A program made the position numbers and the translations under genes. This document shows positions 8,351-60,780 of a DNA stretch of 64,000 nucleotides, one piece after another. The notes below the pieces were generated by a model. That model saw nothing but the letters and a program-made list of their open reading frames with translations, did not search any database and had not been told where the DNA came from. Each line of letters begins with the position of its first letter. Positions within the stretch are counted from its first letter, which is position 1. Source of the DNA: a virus (taxonomy: Duplodnaviria; Heunggongvirae; Uroviricota; Caudoviricetes); the IMG/VR virus record IMGVR_UViG_3300023174_000034. One strand, given 5' to 3'.

Positions 8351-8389
8351 TATAAATATTTGTATGCGGTGCCAACCGGGCCGCATACA
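8351..8389 (+). promoter_or_regulatory. T4-type late promoter plus leader hairpin
   Basis: TATAAATA 8351-8358, then TGTATGCGG-N11-CCGCATACA. Confidence 0.7.
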
Positions 8390-8416: not shown

Positions 8417-10339
8417 ATGGCTAAAATCATCGGTATCGATCTGGGTACCACAAACTCGTGTGTTGCCGTAATGGAAGGCAACGTTCCAAAAGTAATCGAA
8501 AACAGCGAAGGCGCACGTACTACCCCTAGTATCGTGGCATACGCCAATGACGAAGTTCTTGTTGGTGCAAGTGCAAAACGTCAGGCTGTTACAAATTCAA
8601 AAAATACCATCTACGCTGCCAAGCGATTGATTGGTCGTAAGTTCAAAGAAGACGCTGTACAAAAAGACATCGACATGATGCCTTTCAAAATTGTTGAAGC
8701 CAAGAATGGCGATGCCTGGATCAGTGCAAACAACAGCGAGCTAGCACCACCGCAAATCTCAGCTGAGGTATTGCGTAAAATGAAACAGACTGCTGAAGCA
8801 TACCTTGGCACAGAAGTGACCCAGGCAGTTATCACAGTACCTGCTTACTTCAACGACAGCCAACGTCAAGCAACCAAGGATGCAGGTAAGATTGCAGGCC
8901 TAGAAGTACTGCGTATTATCAACGAGCCCACAGCGGCCGCATTGGCATACGGCATGGACAAGGCTACCAAGAAGGATGCCAAGATTGTGGTTTACGATCT
9001 GGGCGGTGGCACATTTGACATTTCTGTTATTGAAATTGCCAACCTGGACGGTGACAAACAGTTTGAAGTTCTTGCCACCAATGGTGATACATTCCTGGGC
9101 GGTGAAGACTTTGACCAGCGTATCATGGACTACCTGGTTGACGAGTTTCAAAAGGAATCTGGTGTGGATCTAAGCAAGGACACACTGGCACTGCAACGTC
9201 TCAAAGACGCCGCAGAAAAAGCCAAGATTGAACTGTCTAGCAACACACAGACAGAAGTCAACTTGCCTTATATCACTGCTGATGCAAACGGCCCCAAGCA
9301 CATGGCAGTTAAACTAAGCCGTAGCAAACTAGAAGCTCTAGTAACCGACTTGGTAGAACGCTCAATCGAACCATGCCGTACTGCTCTTAAAGATGCAGGA
9401 CTAACTGCCGCAGACATCGACGACATTATCCTGGTTGGCGGACAAACTCGCATGCCAATGGTGCAAGGTTATGTGGAAAGCTTCTTTGGCAAGGCTCCAC
9501 GTAAAGACGTTAACCCAGACGAAGCAGTTGCCGCTGGCGCTGCCATCCAAGGTGCTGTGCTAGGTGGTGAACGCACGGACGTTCTGCTACTGGATGTCAC
9601 ACCACTCTCACTGGGTATTGAAACCATGGGCGGTGTAATGGCCAAGGTCATCACAAAGAACACAACCATTCCTACCAAGGGCAAAGAAACATTCTCTACT
9701 GCACAGGACAACCAACCCGCGGTGACCATCAAGGTATACCAAGGCGAGCGCGAAATGGCCACAGGTAACAAGCTGTTGGGTGAGTTCAACCTAGAAGGCA
9801 TTCCACCTGCCGCACGTGGTACTCCGCAGATTGAAGTTGCGTTTGATATTGATGCAAACGGTATCTTGAAAGTAAGTGCCAAGGACAAAGCAACTGGCAA
9901 GGAAAACAACATCACCATCAAGGCCAACTCAGGTTTAACAGAAGCTGAGATTGAACAGATGGTCAAGGATGCTGAACTCAATGCCGAGTCAGACAAAAAA
10001 GCCAAGGAACTGGCAGAAGCAAGGAATGCCGCAGAACATCAGATCTGGGGTGTTGAAAAGAACCTGGCCGAACATGGTGACAAACTTGACGAAGATCAAC
10101 GCGAAGCCATCAACACTGGCTTGCATGATCTCAAGAAGCTGGTTGCTGAAGAAAAGGACGTTGATAAAATCAATGAAGCTTTGCAGACATTTGTTCCCAA
10201 GTGCATGCCATTGTTTGACCTAGCAGGTGCAACTGAAGAAGCCAAGCAACGAGCAGATGCAGAAGAAGTCAAGATCAAGAAAGACAGCAAAGACGACAAT
10301 GTAGTTGATGCACAGTTTACTGAAGTCAAAGACAAATAA
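8417..10339 (+). CDS. dnaK: Hsp70 chaperone DnaK
   Basis: [33 protein letters not shown]; full length. Confidence 0.98.
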
Positions 10340-18073: not shown

Positions 18074-18079
18074 ATGCGA

Positions 18080-18901
18080 ATGGACTACTACTCTATATTA
18101 GGTGTACCCAAGGGTGCATCAGAAGACGACATCAAAAAAGCATACCGAAAACTGGCTATGCAACATCACCCTGATCGTGGTGGTGATCAAGCGCAATTCC
18201 AAAAGATACAAGAAGCCTATAACACACTAGGCGATGCCGGAAAGCGCCAAGAATACGATCATCCGCAACCACAAGGCTTTCCGGGTGGATTCCAATTCCA
18301 CTTCAATGGTGGCGGCGGGCTTGAAGATATCTTTGCACAATTTGGATTTGGCGGACCATTTCAACAACAGCAACAACGCAAGAACAAAGACCTGCGTATT
18401 GAGATACAGTTGGAATTGTCCAGCACACTAAAAGATCAGGTCAAAACAGTCAACGTGAGAACCACATCCGGCGAAACACAAACTGTACAAGTTAACATTC
18501 CAAAAGGCATACGGTCAGGACATCAGATGCGTTACCCAAGCCTGGGCGACAACATGTTTAGTACTATTGCACGTGGAGACTTGTATGTGCATTTTGCAGT
18601 GCTCGAAGATCCGCAGTTTCGAGTAGACGGTGATAACATTCTTTACCCATTGGAAATCAACTGCTTGGACGCCATGACTGGTGCTGACGTAGATATTCCA
18701 AATCTGGAAGGTACTGTGTTTCGTATCAGTGTGCCGCCAGGAACCGAATCTGGATCCAAAATGCGTATTGCCAACCATGGGTTGTATCAATTGAATTCTC
18801 CCCAGAGAGGTAGCTTGATCGTACATGTACATGTTACAATACCTAAAATAAGTTCTCCTGAGGGGATTGAACTTATTCGCCAACTTAAACAAGCCCACTA
18901 A
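18080..18901 (+). CDS. dnaJ: DnaJ/CbpA-like co-chaperone (no zinc finger)
   Basis: DYYSILG, HHPDRGG (HPD), G/F-rich region, C-terminal domain. Confidence 0.92.
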   Translation: MDYYSILGVPKGASEDDIKKAYRKLAMQHHPDRGGDQAQFQKIQEAYNTLGDAGKRQEYDHPQPQGFPGGFQFHFNGGGGLEDIFAQFGFGGPFQQQQQRKNKDLRIEIQLELSSTLKDQVKTVNVRTTSGETQTVQVNIPKGIRSGHQMRYPSLGDNMFSTIARGDLYVHFAVLEDPQFRVDGDNILYPLEINCLDAMTGADVDIPNLEGTVFRISVPPGTESGSKMRIANHGLYQLNSPQRGSLIVHVHVTIPKISSPEGIELIRQLKQAH

Positions 18902-18923: not shown

Positions 18924-21224
18924 ATGATACAAGCCAATCCTGAGATCGAACTAATTATCGCCGCCGCAGGCGATAATGCCAAACGTTACAAGCATGAGTA
19001 CGTGACGCTAGAACATCTTCTATACGCCATACTCAACTACAAACCATTTGGAGATCTACTTAGAAGTTTTGGCACCAACGTTGATCAAATGCTCGACGAT
19101 GTGGACCAGTACAACAATCGCCCAGACGCAGGTAATGCCATCGACGATGATGAACACCAGCCAAAGAAAACACATGCACTGGAACGTGTGTTCAACCGTG
19201 CGCTAACACAAGTTTTATTTTCCGGACGCAATCACATGCAGGTCATGGATCTGTTCCTGAGCCTGACTGGAGAAAGCAACAGTCATGCTGGTTACTTCAT
19301 CACACGCTACGGTATTGACCGTGCCAAGTTTATCGAATACTACAACGAAAACTACAAAGAAGGTTCTAGTCGCAAGAATGCTACCAAGCAACGTGCAACA
19401 GAAGTACTCAAAGAATACTGTGAAGACTTGAACGAAGAAGCCAAGCAAGGCAAGATTGATCCTGTTATTGGACGTGAGCACGAACTAGAAGAAATCAGTC
19501 ATGTGCTGGCCAAGCGCAACAAGAGCAACATCCTCATGGTTGGTGATGCTGGTGTGGGCAAGACTGCCATTGCAGAAGGACTTGCCAAGAAGATCGTGGA
19601 CGGCGATGTGCCAGACTACTTGCGTGACTACACTGTGTTTAACTTAGACATCGGCTCATTGCTGGCCGGTAGCAAGTACCGCGGTGAGTTTGAAGAAAAA
19701 CTTAAGGACGTTATCAAAGCATTGAACGTTCGTGGCAAGGCCATTTTGTTCATTGACGAAGCACACCAGATGCGTGGTGCCGGCAGTGGCAGTGGTAGCA
19801 ACGTTGACTTCGCTAACATGATCAAGCCTGCCCTGACCAAGGGCCGCATTAAAGTTATTGCGTCAACCACATGGGAAGAATACACACAATCATTTGAAAA
19901 AGATCGTGCGCTCATGCGCCGATTCTATAGGCTTACCGTTGATGAGCCCACCCCTGCTGTTGCTAAAGATATCTTGCGTGGACTGCGTGTTCACTTTGAA
20001 GAGTTTCACGGTGGCGTGATTGATGACTCTGCGATTGAAGCCGCAGTTGATCTAAGTGTACGCTATCAAACAGACAAGAAGTTGCCAGACAAGGCAATTG
20101 ACTTGATTGATACTGCTTGTGCAAAAACCAAACTGTATCAAACCAATTGGACTGTGAGTCGCCGTAACATCATTGATTCACTGAGCAAGTTTACCAAGAT
20201 TCCTGTTGAACAATTGAGCAGTGAAGCTGATGGAGATACCAGTACGATACAAAATCTAGAACCCAAAATCAAGACTCGTTTATTCGGACAAGACTCTGCT
20301 ATTGAAACTGTACTAGAAAAAATCTATGTCAGTCGTGCAGGATTGAAAGCATTGAACAAACCAGTTGGTAGCTTTTTGTTCTTGGGCCCAACAGGCACAG
20401 GTAAAACTGAACTTGCCAAACTGCTAGCAGAAAACCTGGGCATGAAGATGCTACGCTATGACATGAGCGAGTATCAAGAAAAGCACAGTGTAGCCAAGCT
20501 GATTGGTGCGCCTCCTGGATATGTTGGCTATGACGACAGCAACCTAGGTGGTGGCTTGCTGATTAGTGATATTGAAAAAAATCCCAACTGTGTTATTTTG
20601 TTTGATGAGATTGAAAAGGCTCACCCAGACGTTAGCAATATTTTGCTGACTGTGATGGACGAAGGTATTATCACAGCCAGCAACGGTAAGAAAGCAGACT
20701 GTCGCAACGCTATCTTGATCATGACATCCAACCTGGGTGCCGCAGATAACGAACGCAACAACATTGGTTTTGGCCGTGAATTACAAAAGACCGACGAAGA
20801 CGACAAAGCCGTCAAGGACTTTTTCAAGCCAGAATTCCGCAACCGTCTGGATGCAATTTGTAAATTCGCAAAACTAGAAAAGTCTAGTATGCGTATGATC
20901 GTCAGCAAGTTTGTGATTGAAATGAATGACTTGCTGGGCGAAAAAGGTGTACGAGTCAAACTAACTGACACAGCAATTGACCATATCATTGATCAAGGAT
21001 TTGATCCCAAGATGGGTGCTAGACCACTGGGACGCAAGATCAATGATCTGGTCAAAGTTCCGCTGAGTAAGAAGATTTTGTTTGAGCGTCTTGCCCCCAA
21101 CACTACTGTTACTGTTGATTATCGTGATAGCAAGCTAGAATTTGATATCGCAGACACGCAACTTAACGTAGTACCATCGATTGATAGTAATGGATATATT
21201 GTTCTGGACGGCGTTAAATCCTGA
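18924..21224 (+). CDS. clpA: ClpA-like Hsp100 ATPase
   Basis: Two AAA modules (GVGKT/FIDE, GTGKT/FDEIEKAH), IGF loop, no ClpB middle domain. Confidence 0.9.
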   Translation: MIQANPEIELIIAAAGDNAKRYKHEYVTLEHLLYAILNYKPFGDLLRSFGTNVDQMLDDVDQYNNRPDAGNAIDDDEHQPKKTHALERVFNRALTQVLFSGRNHMQVMDLFLSLTGESNSHAGYFITRYGIDRAKFIEYYNENYKEGSSRKNATKQRATEVLKEYCEDLNEEAKQGKIDPVIGREHELEEISHVLAKRNKSNILMVGDAGVGKTAIAEGLAKKIVDGDVPDYLRDYTVFNLDIGSLLAGSKYRGEFEEKLKDVIKALNVRGKAILFIDEAHQMRGAGSGSGSNVDFANMIKPALTKGRIKVIASTTWEEYTQSFEKDRALMRRFYRLTVDEPTPAVAKDILRGLRVHFEEFHGGVIDDSAIEAAVDLSVRYQTDKKLPDKAIDLIDTACAKTKLYQTNWTVSRRNIIDSLSKFTKIPVEQLSSEADGDTSTIQNLEPKIKTRLFGQDSAIETVLEKIYVSRAGLKALNKPVGSFLFLGPTGTGKTELAKLLAENLGMKMLRYDMSEYQEKHSVAKLIGAPPGYVGYDDSNLGGGLLISDIEKNPNCVILFDEIEKAHPDVSNILLTVMDEGIITASNGKKADCRNAILIMTSNLGAADNERNNIGFGRELQKTDEDDKAVKDFFKPEFRNRLDAICKFAKLEKSSMRMIVSKFVIEMNDLLGEKGVRVKLTDTAIDHIIDQGFDPKMGARPLGRKINDLVKVPLSKKILFERLAPNTTVTVDYRDSKLEFDIADTQLNVVPSIDSNGYIVLDGVKS

Positions 21225-23648: not shown

Positions 23649-23696
23649 GCCAAACTATAAAACAGCATAAATAAGTGATCTAGGGTAAGATCACAC

Positions 23697-26600
23697 ATGT
23701 TTATACAGCAATTATTTGAAGACAGCGCAAAGCGGATAATCGTCACATATCCCGGACGCTTCCAGCCTTTCCACAAAGGTCATGCAGAAGTTTTTGCTAA
23801 TCTACAACGCCAATTTGGCAGTGAAAATGTATTCATTGTGACCGGCAACAAAACTGACGCAGTCAAAAGTCCATTTAATTTCAGTGACAAGGTTCGCTTC
23901 ATGCATGCCATGGGCATACCAAATCATCAGATCATCGAAACAGACAAAGTATACGACCTCCCTGGTCGCTTTGAGCCTGTGCGTGATCAAGTGGTTTTTA
24001 TCACTGTGGTCGGTGCACCAGATGCTAGCCGACTGAACCCCGGTGCTACCAAAAAAGACGGCAGTCAAAGCTACTTCCAAAACATTCCCCAAAGTAAAAA
24101 TGAATTCGAAACAGCTGATAAACACGGCTATGTTATTGTAGAACCAGAGCATCCAGAAACTATTGTTCTTGGTGGTAGAAGATATGATGTCAGCCACGGT
24201 ACTCCCACTCGCGAGTTATGGAATACTATTCGCGACAACCCAGGACAGCGTAGTGAGTTTGTGACTCAACTGTATGGTCGCGCAGACAGCGACCTTGCCA
24301 ACACACTAGATAAAATTCCTACCGGTGCCGCGCCTGCACCAGAACCAGCTAAAAAAATGAAAAATGTTAAAAAAGATCTCACAAAAGTACAACATGATCC
24401 CAATGCTGAACAACCAGTTGCTGAAGCAGGCAACCGTGGATACAATCATGGTTTTGCAAGTCCAACCGCACCCAGCCTAGGCGGGCTGCGCCGCAGAGAA
24501 GATGACGAATATCATGTGCCGGATCCTGCTCCGTCAATCTGGTACATACGTGCCGATGGCAAGATCATCAAAGACAAAATGGGCACACCATTCCAGTTCC
24601 GTGATAAAGAAGCCGCACGTAAGTCTGCAATGACCATGATGGCCAAGCCTTTTAACGCTGGCAAGAAGTTTGTGCTGACTACCAAGCCCGAGGACGAAGC
24701 ACCTGTTACGGAAGGTACTGGTCCGGCCACGCACCGCATTGGACTTACAGTAACAGATCCCAATCATCCAATGGTGAGCAAGCGCGGCGATACGTATCAC
24801 AAGACAGTTCGTATCACACAGAATGTGTCTGATCGTGAAGCAGCCATTAACCAAGCTATTGCACACTATCGACGCAAGGGCTACAAGGTACACGACCATC
24901 ACTATATTGGCACAGTAGACGACGAGCCAATCAATGAGCTAAGTCCAAAGACTCTTGGCAGTTATGCAAAGAAAGCAGCCATTGATGCCAAGTTCCTAGG
25001 ACATCAAGCTGGCGCACAACAAGGTGATGCAATGGCACATGCCAAGCGTCCAGGTGACGGTGCCGATGCAGGAGTTGACTTGGACGACCGAGCACACAAG
25101 CGCCTTAAAGGTGTTAACCGTGCAGTGGACAAACTAAGCGGGGTCAACGAATTTGCGCCACCCGGTGGAGATGATGGCAATGATGGATTCAGTGATGACA
25201 CACTCAAGCGCATGGCCGCACAATGGTATCAAGGTGACGAAGATCCTAGAGTAGAAAAAACACTTGCGGCCGCAGGTTGGGAAATTGGGCAAGACGAAGG
25301 CTATGATGATGAGCCCGGCGTGTTTGTAGTACAAGCAGGCGACGTAAATGGCAACAGCTATATGAGCTGGCCAGCACACGAATTGCAAGGTTTGTCGGAA
25401 GGCACAGAACTAAAACAAGCCAAACGCAAGTATAACCAAGCTGCCAAAGATGCTAACTTGGACCAAGTGGGTGCAGGCAAGAAGATTGACACAATGAAAA
25501 ACAGTCTGCGTCAACGAGATCTAAACAAGCAAGACATGACTGAAAGCATGGCTGGCAAGGTTGTGTTCTCTGGCACTGGTGACGATGGCAGCACGTATGA
25601 AATCATCCAATCTGGGGATGGTTTCATGATCCACGCCAACGGTAAGCACATTGACACTTATGGTAGTCTACAGCGAGCCATGAGTGTGCTCAAAAATGAA
25701 GTGCCAGGATTGCAGCCAGGTGTGGCAAAAGGCTTGAATGAATTTGCACCACCTGATGACGATGACGACTATGATGATGACGAGGAGGAGGATGACTTCC
25801 CGGAGATGTTTGAGGCGCCATTTACTGTTAAAGTTAACGGTAGAAAACAAACTGGCACAGTGACATTTATGCAATCAGAACCATCTAGCACGGCAATATG
25901 GGATCTCAAAGGCACACGCTATATCAAATTTGGTATGGATAAAGCACACGATCCCAGTGACTTTGTTACACATGCGGCAGAATACATTCAAGAAATCATC
26001 CGATTGGATGGCCGCGGTCATCATCGCGTTCTGCGTCCAAAAAATCGTCAAGGTGGAATGAACAATGATGTTCAAATTGGTGAAGGTGTAGCGGAAGGCT
26101 CGGAATTGAAACAAGCCAAACGCAAATATAACCAGGCTGCTAAAGATGCCAACACCGACCAAGTGGGTGCAGGCAAAACTATCGATAACATGAAAAAAGG
26201 TCTGCGTCAAAAAGACGTAGACAATAAAAAACAAGATATAAACGAAAACGCAGAAGAACTAAACGTGGGTGATCCTGTTATCATCTCAGGTCGAGGCATT
26301 GAGTTCGAAGGCAAGACAGGAGACATTGACAGCTTTGGTGACATGAAACGTTTTGTAGTTGTGAACTTGTACAATCACGGCAAACACAGTTTCCATTCCA
26401 GCGACGTCAGCTACAATGACTATGCCGATCAGGAAGATGATCTAGACGAAGACCTTTATCAATACAACAAAGAAGATCCATACAACAGCGAGTTTGCTCC
26501 TAGAGCAGGCATGGGCCGCATGACCTTGCGTGGCTGGAAACAACAGATGATCCGACGCACAGCAGAGCTGGCACAACAAATGGCCGCTGCCGGACAAGAC

Positions 26601-26750
26601 ATTGACAAAAGCGCACTCTGGGACAATGTACATGCCAAATTAAAAAGCATGAACATGGATCCTATTGCACAAGAAATTGAACAAGCACAAGCAGAACTAG
26701 AAAAGATTCGCCAGCGTGGCGGTGTGCGTAGCAGGGCATTTAACAAGTGA
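23697..26750 (+). CDS. Large modular (likely virion) protein with N-terminal cytidylyltransferase-like HxGH domain
   Basis: YPGRFQPFHKGH; repeated hydrophobic-x-E linkers; internal duplication; TAAATA upstream. Confidence 0.75.
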   Translation: MFIQQLFEDSAKRIIVTYPGRFQPFHKGHAEVFANLQRQFGSENVFIVTGNKTDAVKSPFNFSDKVRFMHAMGIPNHQIIETDKVYDLPGRFEPVRDQVVFITVVGAPDASRLNPGATKKDGSQSYFQNIPQSKNEFETADKHGYVIVEPEHPETIVLGGRRYDVSHGTPTRELWNTIRDNPGQRSEFVTQLYGRADSDLANTLDKIPTGAAPAPEPAKKMKNVKKDLTKVQHDPNAEQPVAEAGNRGYNHGFASPTAPSLGGLRRREDDEYHVPDPAPSIWYIRADGKIIKDKMGTPFQFRDKEAARKSAMTMMAKPFNAGKKFVLTTKPEDEAPVTEGTGPATHRIGLTVTDPNHPMVSKRGDTYHKTVRITQNVSDREAAINQAIAHYRRKGYKVHDHHYIGTVDDEPINELSPKTLGSYAKKAAIDAKFLGHQAGAQQGDAMAHAKRPGDGADAGVDLDDRAHKRLKGVNRAVDKLSGVNEFAPPGGDDGNDGFSDDTLKRMAAQWYQGDEDPRVEKTLAAAGWEIGQDEGYDDEPGVFVVQAGDVNGNSYMSWPAHELQGLSEGTELKQAKRKYNQAAKDANLDQVGAGKKIDTMKNSLRQRDLNKQDMTESMAGKVVFSGTGDDGSTYEIIQSGDGFMIHANGKHIDTYGSLQRAMSVLKNEVPGLQPGVAKGLNEFAPPDDDDDYDDDEEEDDFPEMFEAPFTVKVNGRKQTGTVTFMQSEPSSTAIWDLKGTRYIKFGMDKAHDPSDFVTHAAEYIQEIIRLDGRGHHRVLRPKNRQGGMNNDVQIGEGVAEGSELKQAKRKYNQAAKDANTDQVGAGKTIDNMKKGLRQKDVDNKKQDINENAEELNVGDPVIISGRGIEFEGKTGDIDSFGDMKRFVVVNLYNHGKHSFHSSDVSYNDYADQEDDLDEDLYQYNKEDPYNSEFAPRAGMGRMTLRGWKQQMIRRTAELAQQMAAAGQDIDKSALWDNVHAKLKSMNMDPIAQEIEQAQAELEKIRQRGGVRSRAFNK
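25389..26250 (+). repeat. Two diverged copies (~160 bp) of one module
   Basis: ELKQAKRKYNQAAKDANxDQVGAGKxIDxMKxxLRQ at ~25389-25545 and ~26085-26250. Confidence 0.85.
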
Positions 26751-27093: not shown

Positions 27094-27261
27094 ATGAAGA
27101 TTAGTGAAATTATTAAAAAGCCAGTTACCGAAACTAGTTCTAGCGGAGTCGCTAGTGCAATGGTGGGCGGCAACGGTAGCCCAAATGTAGGCACGTTGTT
27201 TGGCGGCAGCTTCAAACCAAAGACTCCGTTTACTGCTAAAAAGAAAGCTGGTAAAAAATGA
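27094..27261 (+). CDS. Small putative head protein (55 aa, not in ORF track)
   Basis: TAAATA upstream; MKISEIIKKPVTETSSSGVA. Confidence 0.65.
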   Translation: MKISEIIKKPVTETSSSGVASAMVGGNGSPNVGTLFGGSFKPKTPFTAKKKAGKK

Positions 27262-27938
27262 GTGACATGCGTAAGCTCTTAGAGAGCATGGACAAGTTCG
27301 CAGGGGAGCCAGAACAAAAGTCAGGCGACCAAGTGCGCGGCACAGACAACCCAAAGAAGTCGGGTAAGAAGCATGGCTTCGGTGATCGACTGGTCGGCGA
27401 GGATGTTGAACAATTTGCACAAGAGCTCATGCTAGAATATCGTATGTTTGTTGAACAGCCGCTTGTGGGCAATGTTGCACCAGGCAATCCAACCAGTCCT
27501 GTTGCCAACATCAACCCAGCAGGCCAAGGTACCGCAGTAACAAATCCACAGCTGGGTGCAGGACAAACAGGACAGGTAGGACAACAACCTGCTCAACAAC
27601 CTGCTCAAGCAGGACAACAACCTGCTCAACCCGGACAACAACCTGCTCAAGCAGGACAAACTACCAATCCCAACCAACAACAGCAAACACCTCAACAGCA
27701 GGCCGCACAGGACACAGTGGCCAAACAAGATTTAACTAGCAATCTAGGCAATCTAAAATCAATGAATCCAAACTTGAATGTGCCAAAAACTGTAGCGGCA
27801 CTACAAAAAGATCCAGCCACGTTGGGTGCGGCAGATGCACAGGCACTGGGCCAAATGGCCACCACTCTAGAACCAATTCTTCAAGACAAAGCGGCAGCTG
27901 GCTCATTGAAAAGCACAGTACAGAGATTGGTAAAATGA
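27258..27938 (+). CDS. Gln/Pro-rich putative virion protein
   Basis: MSDMRKLLES leader; GQQPAQ repeats. Confidence 0.7.
   Translation: MSDMRKLLESMDKFAGEPEQKSGDQVRGTDNPKKSGKKHGFGDRLVGEDVEQFAQELMLEYRMFVEQPLVGNVAPGNPTSPVANINPAGQGTAVTNPQLGAGQTGQVGQQPAQQPAQAGQQPAQPGQQPAQAGQTTNPNQQQQTPQQQAAQDTVAKQDLTSNLGNLKSMNPNLNVPKTVAALQKDPATLGAADAQALGQMATTLEPILQDKAAAGSLKSTVQRLVK
27579..27660 (+). repeat. Coding tandem repeat (GGA)CAACAACCTGCTCAA
   Basis: Four QQPAQ units. Confidence 0.8.
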
Positions 27939-27939
27939 C

Positions 27940-28107
27940 ATGTTTGTATACGAGTTGTTTGAATCTGCATTGCAGAACAAAAAAGATTATACTGCCAAGA
28001 GCAAAGCTCTGCAAGACTTGTCAATGAATAAAGATGTTGATCAGAAAGCTGTTCAACAACGTAAACTAGATTTAGAAAAAGAAGCAAAAACAAAGGGTAT
28101 TAAGTAA
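27940..28107 (+). CDS. Small putative head protein (55 aa, not in ORF track)
   Basis: MFVYELFESALQNKKDY...; fills gap, TAATG overlap with next gene. Confidence 0.65.
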   Translation: MFVYELFESALQNKKDYTAKSKALQDLSMNKDVDQKAVQQRKLDLEKEAKTKGIK

Positions 28108-29114
28108 TGATAGAACTTATTACTGCTATTACCACAGGTGGTGCAACAAACCGTATTATTATACCAGCTGGACTTAAAATGCCAGTGGTTGCATACATCT
28201 GGGGCGCCGGTGGGGGCGGTGGCGGGCGAGACGCTGGTGATGTTGGCGGCTTTGGCTCAGGCGGTGCTGGTTATAAAGTAACGTTCAACGCCAACGTGGG
28301 CGATATTGTTGACATTGCTGTTGGTACAGCAGGGCAACCTGGTGCCAGCAGTGCCAGCAGTGCCGCAGGCGGTGCAGGCGGAAGCGGATATGTTGATGGC
28401 AGCGGTAATAGATTTGGTGGCGGCCGTGGCGGTAATGCTGGGGCTCGTGGTAGTTCTGGTGGCGGTGGCGGTGGCGGTGGTGCAACTGTGATTGCGATCA
28501 ACGGTACTGTTGTTGCTGTGGCAGGCGGTGGTGCAGGTGGCGGTGGTGCTGGCAATCGAGGCACAACAACTGGAGACAGTGCGGGCAATACACCAACTGT
28601 GGTCGGAACAAATACCACAGGACAAAACGGTACAGACAAAACTGAAGACGGTGGCGGAGCAGGTGGTGGAGGTGGTGGCCGCTACGGCGGTAGTACACTG
28701 GGTGTTCGTAGTGGTGATACAGGTGGTTACGCTGGATCGCCTGGTCAAAGTTACAGAAACACAAGCGCAACGTTATCGGGCACTGAGACTCGTGCAGCCG
28801 GTGTTGCTCCAGCAGACCTAGATAGGTTCTCTGTTGGCCCAGCATATGCACAAGGTGGTGCAAGAGCAGATGCAGGAACAAACGGTTATGCTGTGTTGAT
28901 ATTTCAAAAATACAGTCTACCTTATCTCAAAGTAAGTGACGCTTGGCAAGCACTTCATCAAATGTATGCCAAAATAGGTGGTACGTGGAGGTCAGTAGAT
29001 ACAGTTTATGTAAAACAAAATGGCGCCTGGAAACTTCTAACTCAAGGGTCAGCACTTACCTCAACTGCATTATCGCCCGGAGTGAATTATGGATCAGGTG
29101 GCACACGCTCATAA
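28107..29114 (+). CDS. Glycine-rich structural/fibre protein
   Basis: WGAGGGGG and many poly-G runs; C-terminal YxKxxGxW repeats. Confidence 0.7.
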   Translation: MIELITAITTGGATNRIIIPAGLKMPVVAYIWGAGGGGGGRDAGDVGGFGSGGAGYKVTFNANVGDIVDIAVGTAGQPGASSASSAAGGAGGSGYVDGSGNRFGGGRGGNAGARGSSGGGGGGGGATVIAINGTVVAVAGGGAGGGGAGNRGTTTGDSAGNTPTVVGTNTTGQNGTDKTEDGGGAGGGGGGRYGGSTLGVRSGDTGGYAGSPGQSYRNTSATLSGTETRAAGVAPADLDRFSVGPAYAQGGARADAGTNGYAVLIFQKYSLPYLKVSDAWQALHQMYAKIGGTWRSVDTVYVKQNGAWKLLTQGSALTSTALSPGVNYGSGGTRS

Positions 29115-29126
29115 GGTAAATAGACA

Positions 29127-29564
29127 ATGGATGAACTACAAAAATCACTGAAGATTGCATTTGCAAGCGAGTTTAGCTTTTATCTGAAAGCACACAACTT
29201 CCATTGGAATGTGACCGGACCTTTCTTTACACAATTACATCAATTGTTTGGGGGTATATACGAAGAAGTATATGGTAGCATCGATCAGTTTGCTGAAGAG
29301 ATTCGCAGTGCTGGTGCATTTGTTCCTGCCAGTTACACAAGATTTTCCATGTTGAGCGAAATTGATGATGAGACCAACATACCCGATGATGCTGATATGA
29401 TTGCAATACTGTTGGAAGACAGCGACAAGATGGTCAAGATACTTAAATTTGTATTCGACATTGCCACTGCCCAAGGTGAAGATGGCCTAGCCAACTTCCT
29501 GGCAGAACGCATGGATGCACATCGCAAGCATTCATGGATGCTAAGAGCTACAATAACCAAATGA
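29127..29564 (+). CDS. dps: Dps/ferritin-like protein
   Basis: KAHNFHWNVTG..F..LH..F, D..AEEIR, H.KH.WML. Confidence 0.92.
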   Translation: MDELQKSLKIAFASEFSFYLKAHNFHWNVTGPFFTQLHQLFGGIYEEVYGSIDQFAEEIRSAGAFVPASYTRFSMLSEIDDETNIPDDADMIAILLEDSDKMVKILKFVFDIATAQGEDGLANFLAERMDAHRKHSWMLRATITK

Positions 29565-29870: not shown

Positions 29871-30512
29871 ATGCAGGATATACTGCTAACCGACAATCAA
29901 CTAGATCCCAATGGTTACTGGGACAAACCCTTAGACAAATTATTATTCCTTCCTATAGTGTCAGACCTAGCACTGTTTGATCAGAACGGCTACGACCTTA
30001 CTGAACTAGAAAAACACTTTGCCGACGTCAACTGTACTGAAATCAAATCACATCGCAGTCATCGCACTGCTATCAAGCACAACTGGTTCACACAACCAGA
30101 GTGCGGGACCGGCGCACATCTCAATCACAGTCTGTTGTTTGAACGCAAAGGTTACACAGGTGAAGCACGAGTACAACTAATCAATTGGACTAAACAGATG
30201 CCATTGGTTCACAAGTTGTTGGCTATCAAACCCAAGTGGGGCCTAGACTTCAGTATGGATTATGTGGATAACGACGGCAATGCATTTGAAGTATTGCACT
30301 GGGAATATGATGGCTTTGACTATGAAGAAGTGCAGGTGCGTAAACTGCAAGTGCAGGCCAAGTTTGCCACTATAGACTGGGAGGATGCTGCCGCCCAAAT
30401 ACTCAAGCACAAAGATGAGTGGCATCATCTGGAATTTTTTGAGCAAAGCGATTGGAAATGCAATTATTTTGGCATACCAAAAGAACGATTCAAGATGGTA
30501 GCCTGGGAATAA
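29871..30512 (+). CDS. Hypothetical protein
   Basis: GAGG SD; FDQNGYDL, KWGLDFSMDY. Confidence 0.65.
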   Translation: MQDILLTDNQLDPNGYWDKPLDKLLFLPIVSDLALFDQNGYDLTELEKHFADVNCTEIKSHRSHRTAIKHNWFTQPECGTGAHLNHSLLFERKGYTGEARVQLINWTKQMPLVHKLLAIKPKWGLDFSMDYVDNDGNAFEVLHWEYDGFDYEEVQVRKLQVQAKFATIDWEDAAAQILKHKDEWHHLEFFEQSDWKCNYFGIPKERFKMVAWE

Positions 30513-30520
30513 ATACTTCC

Positions 30521-31222
30521 ATGACTGAACTAATCTATGTCCTAGTGATGACACATATCACTATTGCGTGTGTCACTCTATATTTGCATAGAAGCCAAGC
30601 ACACCGAGCAGTAACATTCCACCCGGTAATAGCACAATTCATGCGCTTTTGGTTATGGCTAACCACAGGTATGGTCACCAAGCAATGGGTAGCCATACAT
30701 CGCAAGCATCACAGATACAGTGATGAGCCAGGCGATCCACACAGTCCTCATGTGTACGGGCTAAAAAGAGTTTTCTTTACAGGAGCAGTATTATATCATG
30801 CGGCATCAAAAGATAAAGATATGGTTGATTCATACGGTGTTGGTACTCCTGCTGATTGGATGGAGCACAACGTATACACTGCTCACTCCCGACTTGGCAT
30901 TGGCATTCTCCTTTTGCTCAACCTCATCCTCTTTGGCTGGATTGGCGCCTTGATATGGGGCATACAAATGATCTGGATCCCGTTCTGGGCCGCGGGAGTT
31001 ATAAACGGTGTTGCACACTGGTGGGGGTATCGTAATGGGGAAACTAGAGATAGAAGTAGAAATTTGGTTCCTATTGGCATTGTCGTTGGCGGCGAAGAGC
31101 TTCATAATAATCATCATCTGGACCCTGCTAGCGCAAAGCTATCATTGAAGCCATGGGAATTTGATATAGGATGGTTCTATATCCGAACTCTCAGTTTACT
31201 GGGTCTAGCAAGACTACGTTAG
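30521..31222 (+). CDS. Acyl-CoA delta-9-type fatty acid desaturase
   Basis: His boxes HRSQAH, HRKHH, HNNHH; DPHSP. Confidence 0.92.
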   Translation: MTELIYVLVMTHITIACVTLYLHRSQAHRAVTFHPVIAQFMRFWLWLTTGMVTKQWVAIHRKHHRYSDEPGDPHSPHVYGLKRVFFTGAVLYHAASKDKDMVDSYGVGTPADWMEHNVYTAHSRLGIGILLLLNLILFGWIGALIWGIQMIWIPFWAAGVINGVAHWWGYRNGETRDRSRNLVPIGIVVGGEELHNNHHLDPASAKLSLKPWEFDIGWFYIRTLSLLGLARLR

Positions 31223-42226: not shown

Positions 42227-42922
42227 ATGTTTGGAACCGGTTACACAGGCGGCATGAGCACCTATCGTTCTGCCGCAGAAATCAATTCTGCCATGGCTCG
42301 TGTGTACAATCACATGATGCTGGCTGTGCTAAACAGCATGGTGGTCAGTTACTTTGTAGGCACCTCGCCAGAACTGCTGGCATTTTTCTTTACTGGCGTA
42401 CTAAAGTGGATTGTGATCTTTGCGCCATTGGTGGCAATCTTTGCCTTGACTTTTGCCATGGATCGTATGAACAAGTCGCAGGCCACACTAGCCCTGCATG
42501 GATTTGCCGCACTCATGGGACTGAGCTTTGCCACAATCTTTGCTGTGTTTACCATGAGCAGTATTTTTAGTGCGTTCATGGGTGCAGGCATTTTGTTTGG
42601 TACGCTGAGTGCATACGGATACTTTACTAAAAAGAATCTAGACAGTCTGGGCCAGTTTATGTTTGTGGGCTTGATTGCCATCGTGATTGCCAGCATTGTA
42701 AACATCTTTATTGGTTCTAGTGTGATGGCCACAGTTATCAGTGCCTTGGCTATCATTATCTTTCTAGGCCTCACTGCCTACGACACACAAAAGATTCGCG
42801 AAATGGTCAGTTACGATGAGCCCAGTGGCAACGTTGAAATTGTTGGCGCACTTACCTTGTATCTTGACTTTATCAACCTATTCCTAAACCTACTGCAACT
42901 ATTTGGTGGCAAGAAAGACTAA
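42227..42922 (+). CDS. Bax inhibitor-1/YccA family membrane protein
   Basis: 7 TM; TAYDTQ; ALTLYLDFINLF. Confidence 0.92.
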   Translation: MFGTGYTGGMSTYRSAAEINSAMARVYNHMMLAVLNSMVVSYFVGTSPELLAFFFTGVLKWIVIFAPLVAIFALTFAMDRMNKSQATLALHGFAALMGLSFATIFAVFTMSSIFSAFMGAGILFGTLSAYGYFTKKNLDSLGQFMFVGLIAIVIASIVNIFIGSSVMATVISALAIIIFLGLTAYDTQKIREMVSYDEPSGNVEIVGALTLYLDFINLFLNLLQLFGGKKD

Positions 42923-60520: not shown

Positions 60521-60780
60521 TGAGATACGGTAACATGCCTTACAAATACCGAGTGGTCACCGAGGTGTCTTCCAAGGAAGATGCAGATGTTGACTTCTTG
60601 GGTCGACAAGTGTTGTTGACTACCAACAACTTTCAAACAGCTCGCAAAGAGTGCATTGAGTGGGCCGCTTATGATGACATCCTTGTGCATGTTATCAACC
60701 AGTTTGGCTCTAGTAAATTTTCCTGCGACGGTGCCAGCGAGGCTTACGATCGTTTTCCTAAAACAGCGGAGGCAGTATGA
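60520..60780 (+). CDS. Early hypothetical protein
   Basis: GGAGG SD; TAATG overlap. Confidence 0.65.
   Translation: MRYGNMPYKYRVVTEVSSKEDADVDFLGRQVLLTTNNFQTARKECIEWAAYDDILVHVINQFGSSKFSCDGASEAYDRFPKTAEAV

Follow-up and report, generated by a model that had tools for sequence, protein, structure and literature searches.

In the 64,000-nucleotide stretch of the uncultured virus record IMGVR_UViG_3300023174_000034 (the whole of it referred to as the window), a single open reading frame on the + strand (23697-26750) encodes a protein of 1017 residues, P0001. The protein combines in one translation product an NMNAT-like transferase, ten independent small modules, exposed linkers of the form [LVIM]-x-Glu and an N-terminal leader of eight residues. 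We consider it fairly probable that P0001 is a head-targeted capsid-cargo polyprotein, which would be cut at each joint during maturation and whose pieces would be injected together with the DNA. The original prediction, made from the letters of the DNA, had described the gene as a virion polyprotein in which a nucleotidyltransferase domain is followed by about ten small modules, split by protease-like sites. That reading was supported in every part that can be tested by computation.

Enzyme domain, modules and joints

The ten joints were located at the glutamates of residues 243, 339, 414, 485, 568, 616, 682, 800, 850 and 918. All linker sites named in the original prediction were thereby recovered, and every one of them ends in [LVIM]-x-Glu. 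P0001 contains 16 [ILVM]xE triplets in total, which is about the background rate, so that an excess of such triplets was rejected as evidence; the signal resides in the position of the triplets and not in their number. When the segmentation was restricted to motif sites with homology-breakpoint support, exactly the ten joint sites were obtained, plus residue 796. The breakpoints in an all-against-all BLAST comparison of 233 relatives peaked precisely at the Glu (653 versus 125 at random positions). To describe the motif we used 116 distinct non-collinear junction contexts, in which a P0001 module is preceded by a differing upstream sequence. Position P1 was Glu in 99% of these (background 6.6%) and P3 was Leu, Val, Ile or Met in 97% (the background for Ile/Leu/Val/Met/Phe being 23%), with variable residues at P2 and P4-P8. 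The prohead protease gp21 of T4 is known to cleave after I/L-x-E (PMC12991175; PMC9026906), and the motif at the joints is the same as this documented specificity, as had been proposed.

The predicted structure is in line with such a chain. In the AlphaFold model all ten joints are situated in linkers with a per-residue confidence score (pLDDT) below 50, with folded parts (e.g. M4 and M9) between them. Four other triplets of the hydrophobic-x-Glu type (hxE) lie within strands or helices (IIE 79-81, IVE 147-149, MFE 704-706 and IQE 764-766). As for the remaining ones, LFE 6-8 terminates the leader and IGE 794-796 is located in the linker that adjoins joint 800. Inside well-defined modules [ILVM]xE shows a modest depletion (21 observed versus 30.4 expected, P = 0.02), and [ILVM]xQ is enriched (z = 3.9). 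The recurrence of NEFAPP was also borne out, with E-FAP(P) at 485, 682 and 932.

The first unit behind the leader (M0) carries the enzyme domain. Residues 18-84 match PF01467 (CTP_transf_like) with 30.3 bits, against a curated cut-off of 21, and both signature motifs were found, HxGH in the form of FHKGH (25-29) and the ISxTxxR-type motif in the form of SHGTPTR (165-171). For residues 11-210 AlphaFold yields a confident Rossmann-type model with pLDDT above 90. The nearest solved folds are those of nicotinic acid mononucleotide (NaMN) and nicotinamide mononucleotide (NMN) adenylyltransferases, which were matched weakly (Foldseek E 4e-4, TM 0.5-0.59). The best sequence neighbor is likewise weak (1f9a in a phmmer search, E 0.0026) and PPAT scores similarly. 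By its predicted fold, M0 is an NMNAT-like HxGH nucleotidyltransferase, the NMNAT matches being weak.

The ten modules that follow the enzyme domain are 48-118 residues long (Table 1), and the predicted pieces include both very acidic (M4, M7 and M9) and basic ones. M1 aligns over its full length (1-96/96) in relatives, and its 44 family members have 22 different downstream neighbors. M2 is also present in the cultured Synechococcus phage BUCT-ZZ01 and in the polyproteins of two related contigs, G001 and G004. The acidic M4 has 71 members that are followed by 50 different families, and copies of the rare M7 that are 95% identical occur in the related proteins P0099 and P0103. The duplicated block of the original prediction consists of M5 and M8, which are 74% identical at the protein level (residues 569-616 versus 801-850) and 80% identical over 142 nucleotides of DNA (25387-25528 versus 26083-26224). 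M9, with 72 members, is nearly always the penultimate module of the chain. It gave weak Foldseek matches to NusG/Spt5 KOW and L24 (E ~1e-3) and to many small phage proteins. A Foldseek comparison of M4, M9 and M10 with the PDB returned only weak matches of the KOW/SH3 type, for M9 alone, from which no function was assigned, and look-ups of M4 and M10 in the ESM Atlas gave nothing usable.

That the modules move independently became clear when the pieces cut at the ten Glu were compared separately, using BLAST, with ~230 relatives. The alignments run from end to end (1-83/83, 1-68/68 and 1-99/99, for instance) and the order differs between proteins: P0008 reads M0-M4-M1-M2-M3-M5-M9-M10, P0050 reads M4-M9-M1 and P0051 reads M9-M1-M6-M4. 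Strict collinearity, named beforehand as the outcome that would speak against the prediction, was not found. P0001 is composed of eleven units, around 370 segment families were recovered among the 233 relatives, and 2971 representative clusters (50% identity) match P0001, which makes for a large superfamily. Within lake metagenomes, a contig from run X11 has position 25493 connected with 26190, so that exactly 696 nucleotides are missing in frame, M6-M7 are gone and the duplicated blocks M5 and M8 are fused; this is a natural whole-module variant. In other metagenome contigs the agreement with the window breaks off at joints 243 and 682, beyond which different modules follow. It is exactly at the joints that related phages differ by swaps, losses, duplications and changes in the order of the modules.

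The original prediction had also suggested the linkers as module-shuffling points. This holds at the protein level and, for one subclass of joints, at the DNA level as well. In the loci examined, the GVAEG joints show fixed silent positions: GGTGTGGCGGAAGGC was found at 15 of the 31 distinct sites, and their Ala is encoded by GCG in 25 of 31, against a background of 10%. Joint 800, at the end of M7, is spelled GGTGTAGCGGAAGGC, one letter away from the commonest GVAEG spelling in these loci. This subset probably also acts as an in-frame crossover point. The codon spelling of the nine other joints of P0001 is unlike that of GVAEG and also mutually unlike, and no DNA repeat that marks the joints of P0001 was found. 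Given that nine of the ten joints share no codon spelling, the constraint is on the peptide, and it is the peptide motif that forms the common denominator of the joints.

Leader, stand-alone modules and the head genes of relatives

The N-terminal MFIQQLFE is a candidate capsid targeting sequence (CTS). The pattern M[FY][IV]x[QED][LMI]FE recurs at the N-termini of relatives, and an hxE triplet occurs within the first 14 residues in 192 of 229 of them. (A looser pattern, M-x(2-9)-hxE, was rejected as too permissive, as it matches 21 of the 109 open reading frames in the window.) The leader lies outside the folded domain and is modeled as a helix from residue 2 to 7; over residues 1-10 the pLDDT averages 53. 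A leader of this type is also present on proteins without the enzyme domain; in P0208, MIVDDLFE is directly followed by a module of the M9 type. The CTS of T4 is MKTYQEFIAE (PMC8442874); its residues 4 and 7 are used for targeting and its residues 8 and 10 for processing (PMC9026906, PMC8442874). The eight residues of MFIQQLFE resemble this peptide, and the likeness suggests a role in targeting.

The same type of leader is found on a separate gene located 1.2 kb downstream of the polyprotein gene (27940-28107). Its product, MFVYELFE followed by SALQNKKDYTAKSKALQDL, is 71% identical over 41 residues to a segment that lies inside P0012, P0017 and P0025, flanked there by NVTE and GVAE. The stop codon of the stand-alone gene takes the position of the downstream joint. 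In view of this match, a leader plus module and a module between joints appear as interchangeable encodings of nearly the same mature peptide. A small open reading frame elsewhere in the window, starting with MRYGNMPYKYRVVTE followed by VSS, is 42% identical over 74 residues to a segment of P0205 between GVAE and YLDE, and may on this likeness be a second stand-alone module gene. Between the polyprotein gene and the 27940-28107 gene there is a gene for 55 residues that begins with MKISEIIKKPVTE and weakly qualifies as a candidate for a leader-bearing small cargo protein, with no homology evidence found for it, and next to it a gene for a Gln/Pro-rich protein. A start that looks like that of the Gln/Pro-rich gene (MSDLKDILAKLDKIAE) is found in G001 immediately 5' of one of its polyproteins.

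Five IMG/VR contigs with module homologs were searched for protease and head genes. Three of the five encode a Peptidase_S77 (gp21-type) prohead protease along with a Gp23 capsid protein. Among these three are G001 (342 kb) and G004 (163 kb), the two contigs with a completeness of at least 90%. In G001 the head genes are arranged as follows: first the gene for an acidic protein that begins with MSKFEQLIE, then that for the protease, next that for a scaffold-like protein in which 25 hxE sites are present, and last that for the capsid protein, which has four [IL]-x-E sites (LLE-7, LLE-19, ILE-34 and LKE-42) ahead of its conserved core. G001 is syntenic with the window and contains, at the corresponding site between the genes for a Clp ATPase and DNA polymerase, an array of leader-bearing polyproteins. 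The leaders in this array read MRATEFIVE, MRYREILE, MRFNELQE and MNLNNLFE, and its contents comprise GNAT and GP88 domains and modules that are like M1, M2 and M4. The whole G001 genome holds 16 strict linker motifs, nine of which fall in three genes of the array. G004, a phage the size of T4, likewise encodes such a chain, of 710 residues. The domains carried by sister proteins include GNAT, nucleotidyltransferase, methyltransferase, HD and zincin-like domains.

Two further observations concern G001. One of its sister polyproteins (862 residues; L044:2184-4769, G001 78184-80772) contains a zincin-like HELTH (HExxH) motif, together with a weak NTP_transf_2 match and a DUF6934 match, and it connects the family with those polyvalent proteins of Iyer et al. 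that bear a metallopeptidase. An open reading frame of 197 residues (90787-91380), beside the DNA polymerase gene and the polyprotein array, looks ClpP-like by eye, no family search having been made.

Genomic setting

The window derives from an uncultured jumbo phage whose ancestry is related to that of T4. The closest counterparts of its DNA polymerase, an enzyme of family B, are found in Sinorhizobium phage Phosso and Agrobacterium phage Atu_ph07 (47-51% identity). At the syntenic site Phosso has fiber- and collagen-like genes and no polyproteins. The polyprotein gene was recovered nearly complete in lake and freshwater metagenomes from at least five studies. RNA runs contained just 5-7% of the sampled words and are uninformative on expression.

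Upstream of the gene lie those for Hsp70, DnaJ and ClpA/B-like chaperones, as well as lysis-like, glycosyltransferase-like and carbohydrate-binding-module-like genes. The ClpA/B-like ATPase gene is 2.5 kb away. Downstream follow the three small genes described above and the genes for a glycine-rich and a Dps/ferritin-like protein and for the DNA polymerase. The glycine-rich protein (335 residues, with GGGGG runs) has a weak match to a virion structural protein in PHROG and directly follows the small leader-bearing genes. The Dps/ferritin-like gene belongs to a set of unusual auxiliary genes, together with those for a fatty-acid desaturase and for a membrane protein of the Bax1-I (BI-1/YccA) type; a Dps-like gene is situated beside the polyprotein array in G001 too, and is thus conserved.

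An ATAAATA box precedes the polyprotein gene. The window has 12 copies of this sequence (e.g. at 8352, 13253, 17993, 21924, 23667 and 52079), 11 of which are on the + strand, and inspection of the flanks revealed that several are positioned immediately 5' of start codons. The genome of G001 contains 47 such boxes, 38 of its genes have one within 80 nucleotides upstream, and the first gene of its head-gene block is preceded by one. In the window and in G001 alike, the motif is strongly associated with gene starts. ATAAATA, which is NATAAATA-like, probably serves this lineage as its late-promoter box. Between the box and the start codon of the polyprotein gene, the inverted repeat GTGATC ... GATCAC flanks the purine-rich AGGGTAAG, and could hide or present the ribosome-binding site.

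Table 1. Positions of P0001, its units and other features within the window
Feature	Position	Strand	Description	Basis
Hsp70/DnaK	8417-10339		chaperone set	
DnaJ	18074-18901		chaperone set	
ClpA/B-type double AAA+ ATPase	18924-21224		chaperone set	
ATAAATA box	23667-23673	+	T4-type late-promoter-like motif	30 nt before polyprotein start codon
Inverted repeat	23675-23694		GTGATC ... GATCAC, immediately before polyprotein start codon	
Leader	23697-23720	+	residues 1-8, MFIQQLFE; candidate CTS ending L-F-E	recurrence in relatives
M0	23721-24425	+	residues 9-243; HxGH nucleotidyltransferase domain (~10-210) and disordered tail ending PVAE	PF01467, AlphaFold
M1	24426-24713	+	residues 244-339; 10.7 kDa, pI 9.3; ends PVTE	folded core 278-335
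M2	24714-24938	+	residues 340-414; 8.5 kDa, alpha/beta; ends PINE	45 members
M3	24939-25151	+	residues 415-485; helical, low confidence; ends GVNE	alignments, AlphaFold
M4	25152-25400	+	residues 486-568; acidic (net -14); starts FAPPGG, ends GLSE	pLDDT ~90 (model mf75728213dfc)
M5	25401-25544	+	residues 569-616; basic, helical; duplicated block, copy 1; ends DMTE	DNA repeat D1
M6	25545-25742	+	residues 617-682; ends GLNE	19 members, 16 different downstream families
M7	25743-26096	+	residues 683-800; starts FAPP and Asp/Glu run, ends GVAE	rare
M8	26097-26246	+	residues 801-850; duplicated block, copy 2; ends DINE	protein and DNA repeat
M9	26247-26450	+	residues 851-918; acidic KOW/SH3-like small beta-barrel; ends DLDE	pLDDT 75-94
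M10	26451-26750	+	residues 919-1017 and stop; basic and helical; last module of the chain	63 members, nearly all at the C-terminus
Small gene	27094-27261	+	55 residues; candidate leader-bearing small cargo protein	sequence; weak
Gln/Pro-rich gene	27258-27938	+	226 residues; starts MSDMRKLLE, then S	sequence
Leader-bearing module gene	27940-28107	+	55 residues; MFVYELFE, then SALQNKKDY...; leader type as in P0001	stand-alone polyprotein module
Glycine-rich protein	28107-29114		335 residues	weak PHROG match
Dps/ferritin-like	29127-29564		auxiliary gene	
Fatty-acid desaturase	30452-31222		auxiliary gene	
Bax1-I membrane protein	42227-42922		auxiliary gene, BI-1/YccA-type	
Small open reading frame	60526-60744		possible second stand-alone module gene	42% identity to P0205 segment

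Known systems and competing readings

The IPI, IPII and IPIII internal proteins of T4 and its Alt protein (PMC9026906, PMC8442874, PMC3012670) have, like P0001, a short N-terminal leader that ends in hydrophobic-x-Glu. In both cases there is a gp21-type protease in the lineage, the small non-homologous cargo (putative in the case of P0001) forms a very variable set and an enzyme is among it, which is Alt in T4 and the HxGH transferase in P0001. In T4, however, each cargo protein has its own gene and leader and is cut once (Alt at both ends), whereas P0001 strings around eleven units behind one leader, with internal sites. The T4 targeting peptide consists of ~10-19 residues ending in I/L-x-E, against the eight residues of the P0001 leader, which end in L-F-E. 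In scans of PHROGs and Pfam, P0001 matched cytidylyltransferase families only and no homology to IPI, IPII, IPIII or Alt was found, and our claim is therefore that P0001 works like the T4 cargo, not that it is a homolog.

A second parallel is provided by the polyvalent phage proteins described by Iyer, Burroughs, Anand, de Souza and Aravind in 2017, which according to passages of their paper contain 2-15 shuffled domains and are in some cases packaged uncut (PMC5512222). As in P0001, many unrelated and extensively rearranged domains are combined, and they are predicted, in those same passages, to travel with the DNA. The processing proposed there is by embedded zincin peptidases, whereas the joints of P0001 have a motif of the head-protease type; the passages that deal with cleavage, linkers and the capsid describe no conserved joint motif, head-protease sites or targeting leader. 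The modules of P0001 are mostly tiny (48-118 residues) and of no known family, unlike the polyvalent-protein domains as presented in these passages, and a profile scan of P0001 detected no zincin-like metallopeptidase or other signature polyvalent domain. In the giant phages phiKZ, 201phi2-1 and SPN3US a gp21-related prohead protease cuts after Glu at several sites within one head protein (PMC10052503, PMC9026906). Its motif is A/S/G-x-E, as compared to [LVIM]-x-E in P0001, and by its cuts long propeptides in front of a single mature protein are removed or broken up, whereas the joints of P0001 separate shuffled independent modules.

A comparable enzyme has been encountered in virions: passages of PMC10665884 report that the HxGH 'cytidylyltransferase' of the T4-like cyanophage S-CREM2 was detected there by mass spectrometry. 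This protein, gp154 (L059:2109-2966; 286 residues), starts with MKNFSSFLTE followed by A and continues with GRYNPPHKGH. It thus resembles M0 in being an HxGH enzyme behind a leader, in this case of ten residues ending in L-T-E, but is a single protein without a module chain. The decapeptide, which is like the CTS of T4, is not mentioned in those passages. S-CREM2 makes a convenient cultured system for leader-dependent packaging of an HxGH enzyme. CTS-bearing internal proteins of T4, polyvalent proteins and the multiply cut head proteins of giant phages are thus already known; our literature searches found no account of chains of shuffled small modules that have head-protease sites behind one targeting leader.

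For the capsid-cargo reading of P0001 the course of events would be as follows. The gene would be transcribed late, from the ATAAATA box, and the leader would bring the entire chain into the prohead's scaffolding core, the task that the CTS performs for IPI-III and Alt in T4. There the gp21-type (S77) prohead protease of the phage would cut after each joint Glu and release around eleven separate proteins of 5-26 kDa, acidic and basic. These would remain in the head, exit with the DNA into the next cell and act early. Restriction enzymes of the GmrSD type are inhibited by the injected T4 proteins Ip1-3 (PMC12373910), and by analogy the pieces may act against host defenses, while the enzyme piece might support NAD-related chemistry. 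The GVAEG joints would double as in-frame crossover points. In favor of this reading stand the joint motif with its constraint on the peptide, the exposed position of the joints, the avoidance of hxE inside modules, the recurring leader and its interchange with a joint, the protease and capsid genes of relatives and the conserved array in G001, with the S-CREM2 enzyme and the T4 internal proteins as precedents.

Several observations weigh against this reading. The polyprotein gene is set amid chaperone, lysis-like and replication genes, without head genes as neighbors. The ATAAATA box is also found 5' of the Hsp70, DnaJ and queD genes and is hence not specific for virion genes, which leaves it as weak evidence for late timing. 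The depletion of [ILVM]xE inside modules is modest and was one among several tests run. S-CREM2 gp154 is distant from M0 (29% identity over 73 residues, pairwise E 8e-4). Searches of cultured phages gave no match to the polyprotein with blastn and just three partial matches with tblastn, and a carrier of the whole chain was not found among them. Finally, gp21 can cut a cytoplasmic protein (PMC12991175), and cleavage by itself is therefore not proof of packaging.

The latter point bears on a reading in which the prohead protease does cut the chain, but in which the pieces are not injected and either have a late function in the cell that makes the phage or are scaffold or filler material, lost from the head at maturation. 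T4 gp21 alone suffices to trigger a cytoplasmic sensor via a disordered loop (PMC12991175), most T4 scaffold fragments exit the capsid (PMC8442874), and the location of the polyprotein gene outside any head-gene cluster fits as well. We nevertheless regard this course as rather unlikely, considering that T4 proteins tagged with a leader of the CTS type stay in the head (PMC9026906, PMC8442874) and that, according to passages of PMC10665884, a related class of enzyme is present in the virions of S-CREM2. Besides, the modules are folded domains that vary highly among phages, which is typical of conflict proteins and not of a scaffold.

The chain might also remain uncut and function as a single multidomain effector or enzyme scaffold, like the shuffled polyvalent proteins of which some are packaged uncut (passages of PMC5512222), with the [LVIM]-x-E linkers as flexible spacers and in-frame recombination joints. 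The fixation of silent positions in the GVAEG joints indeed speaks for a DNA-level function, and in-frame deletion between repeated modules exists in nature. Yet a hydrophobic P3 and Glu at P1 are kept in all ten joints, nine of which lack a common DNA spelling, and spacers or microhomology would leave a 99% invariant Glu beside a variable P2 unexplained. The same motif ends the N-terminal leader, where no joining occurs, one of the modules is present as a separate leader-bearing gene, and hxE is somewhat avoided inside modules. An uncut P0001 is improbable in our judgment.

If the chain is cut, the cutting could in principle be done by a host Glu-specific enzyme, by the Clp system of the phage or by the zincin domain in sister polyproteins. 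Passages of Iyer et al. propose self-processing by zincins (PMC5512222). The ClpA/B-like ATPase gene 2.5 kb upstream, the ClpP-like (by eye) open reading frame beside the G001 array and the HELTH motif could be taken in the same sense. Clp proteases are, however, not sequence-specific endoproteases. P0001 itself has no protease domain that a profile scan recognizes, and the joint motif coincides exactly with that on record for proteases of the gp21 type, such as the relatives encode. We consider the involvement of a different protease very improbable.

Extended beyond P0001, the capsid-cargo reading would imply a general plug-in system for virion cargo in T4-related phages of lakes and seas, in which interchangeable mini-proteins behind one leader are cut apart by the protease and the joints serve as crossovers, to yield rapidly reshuffled, lineage-specific kits of injected effectors. 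We give this generalization about an even chance. If it is true, the phage proteins that are injected before gene expression would be far more numerous and modular than the few internal proteins of T4 suggest. Hundreds of uncharacterized modules of 50-120 residues would then become candidate early effectors or anti-defense proteins, with boundaries that can be read from the sequence. The combination of one leader with protease joints between the cargo would constitute a natural design rule for loading a capsid with multiple proteins. The chain would then amount to an operon at the protein level, in which the same short sequence is a processing site and, in part, a recombination joint.

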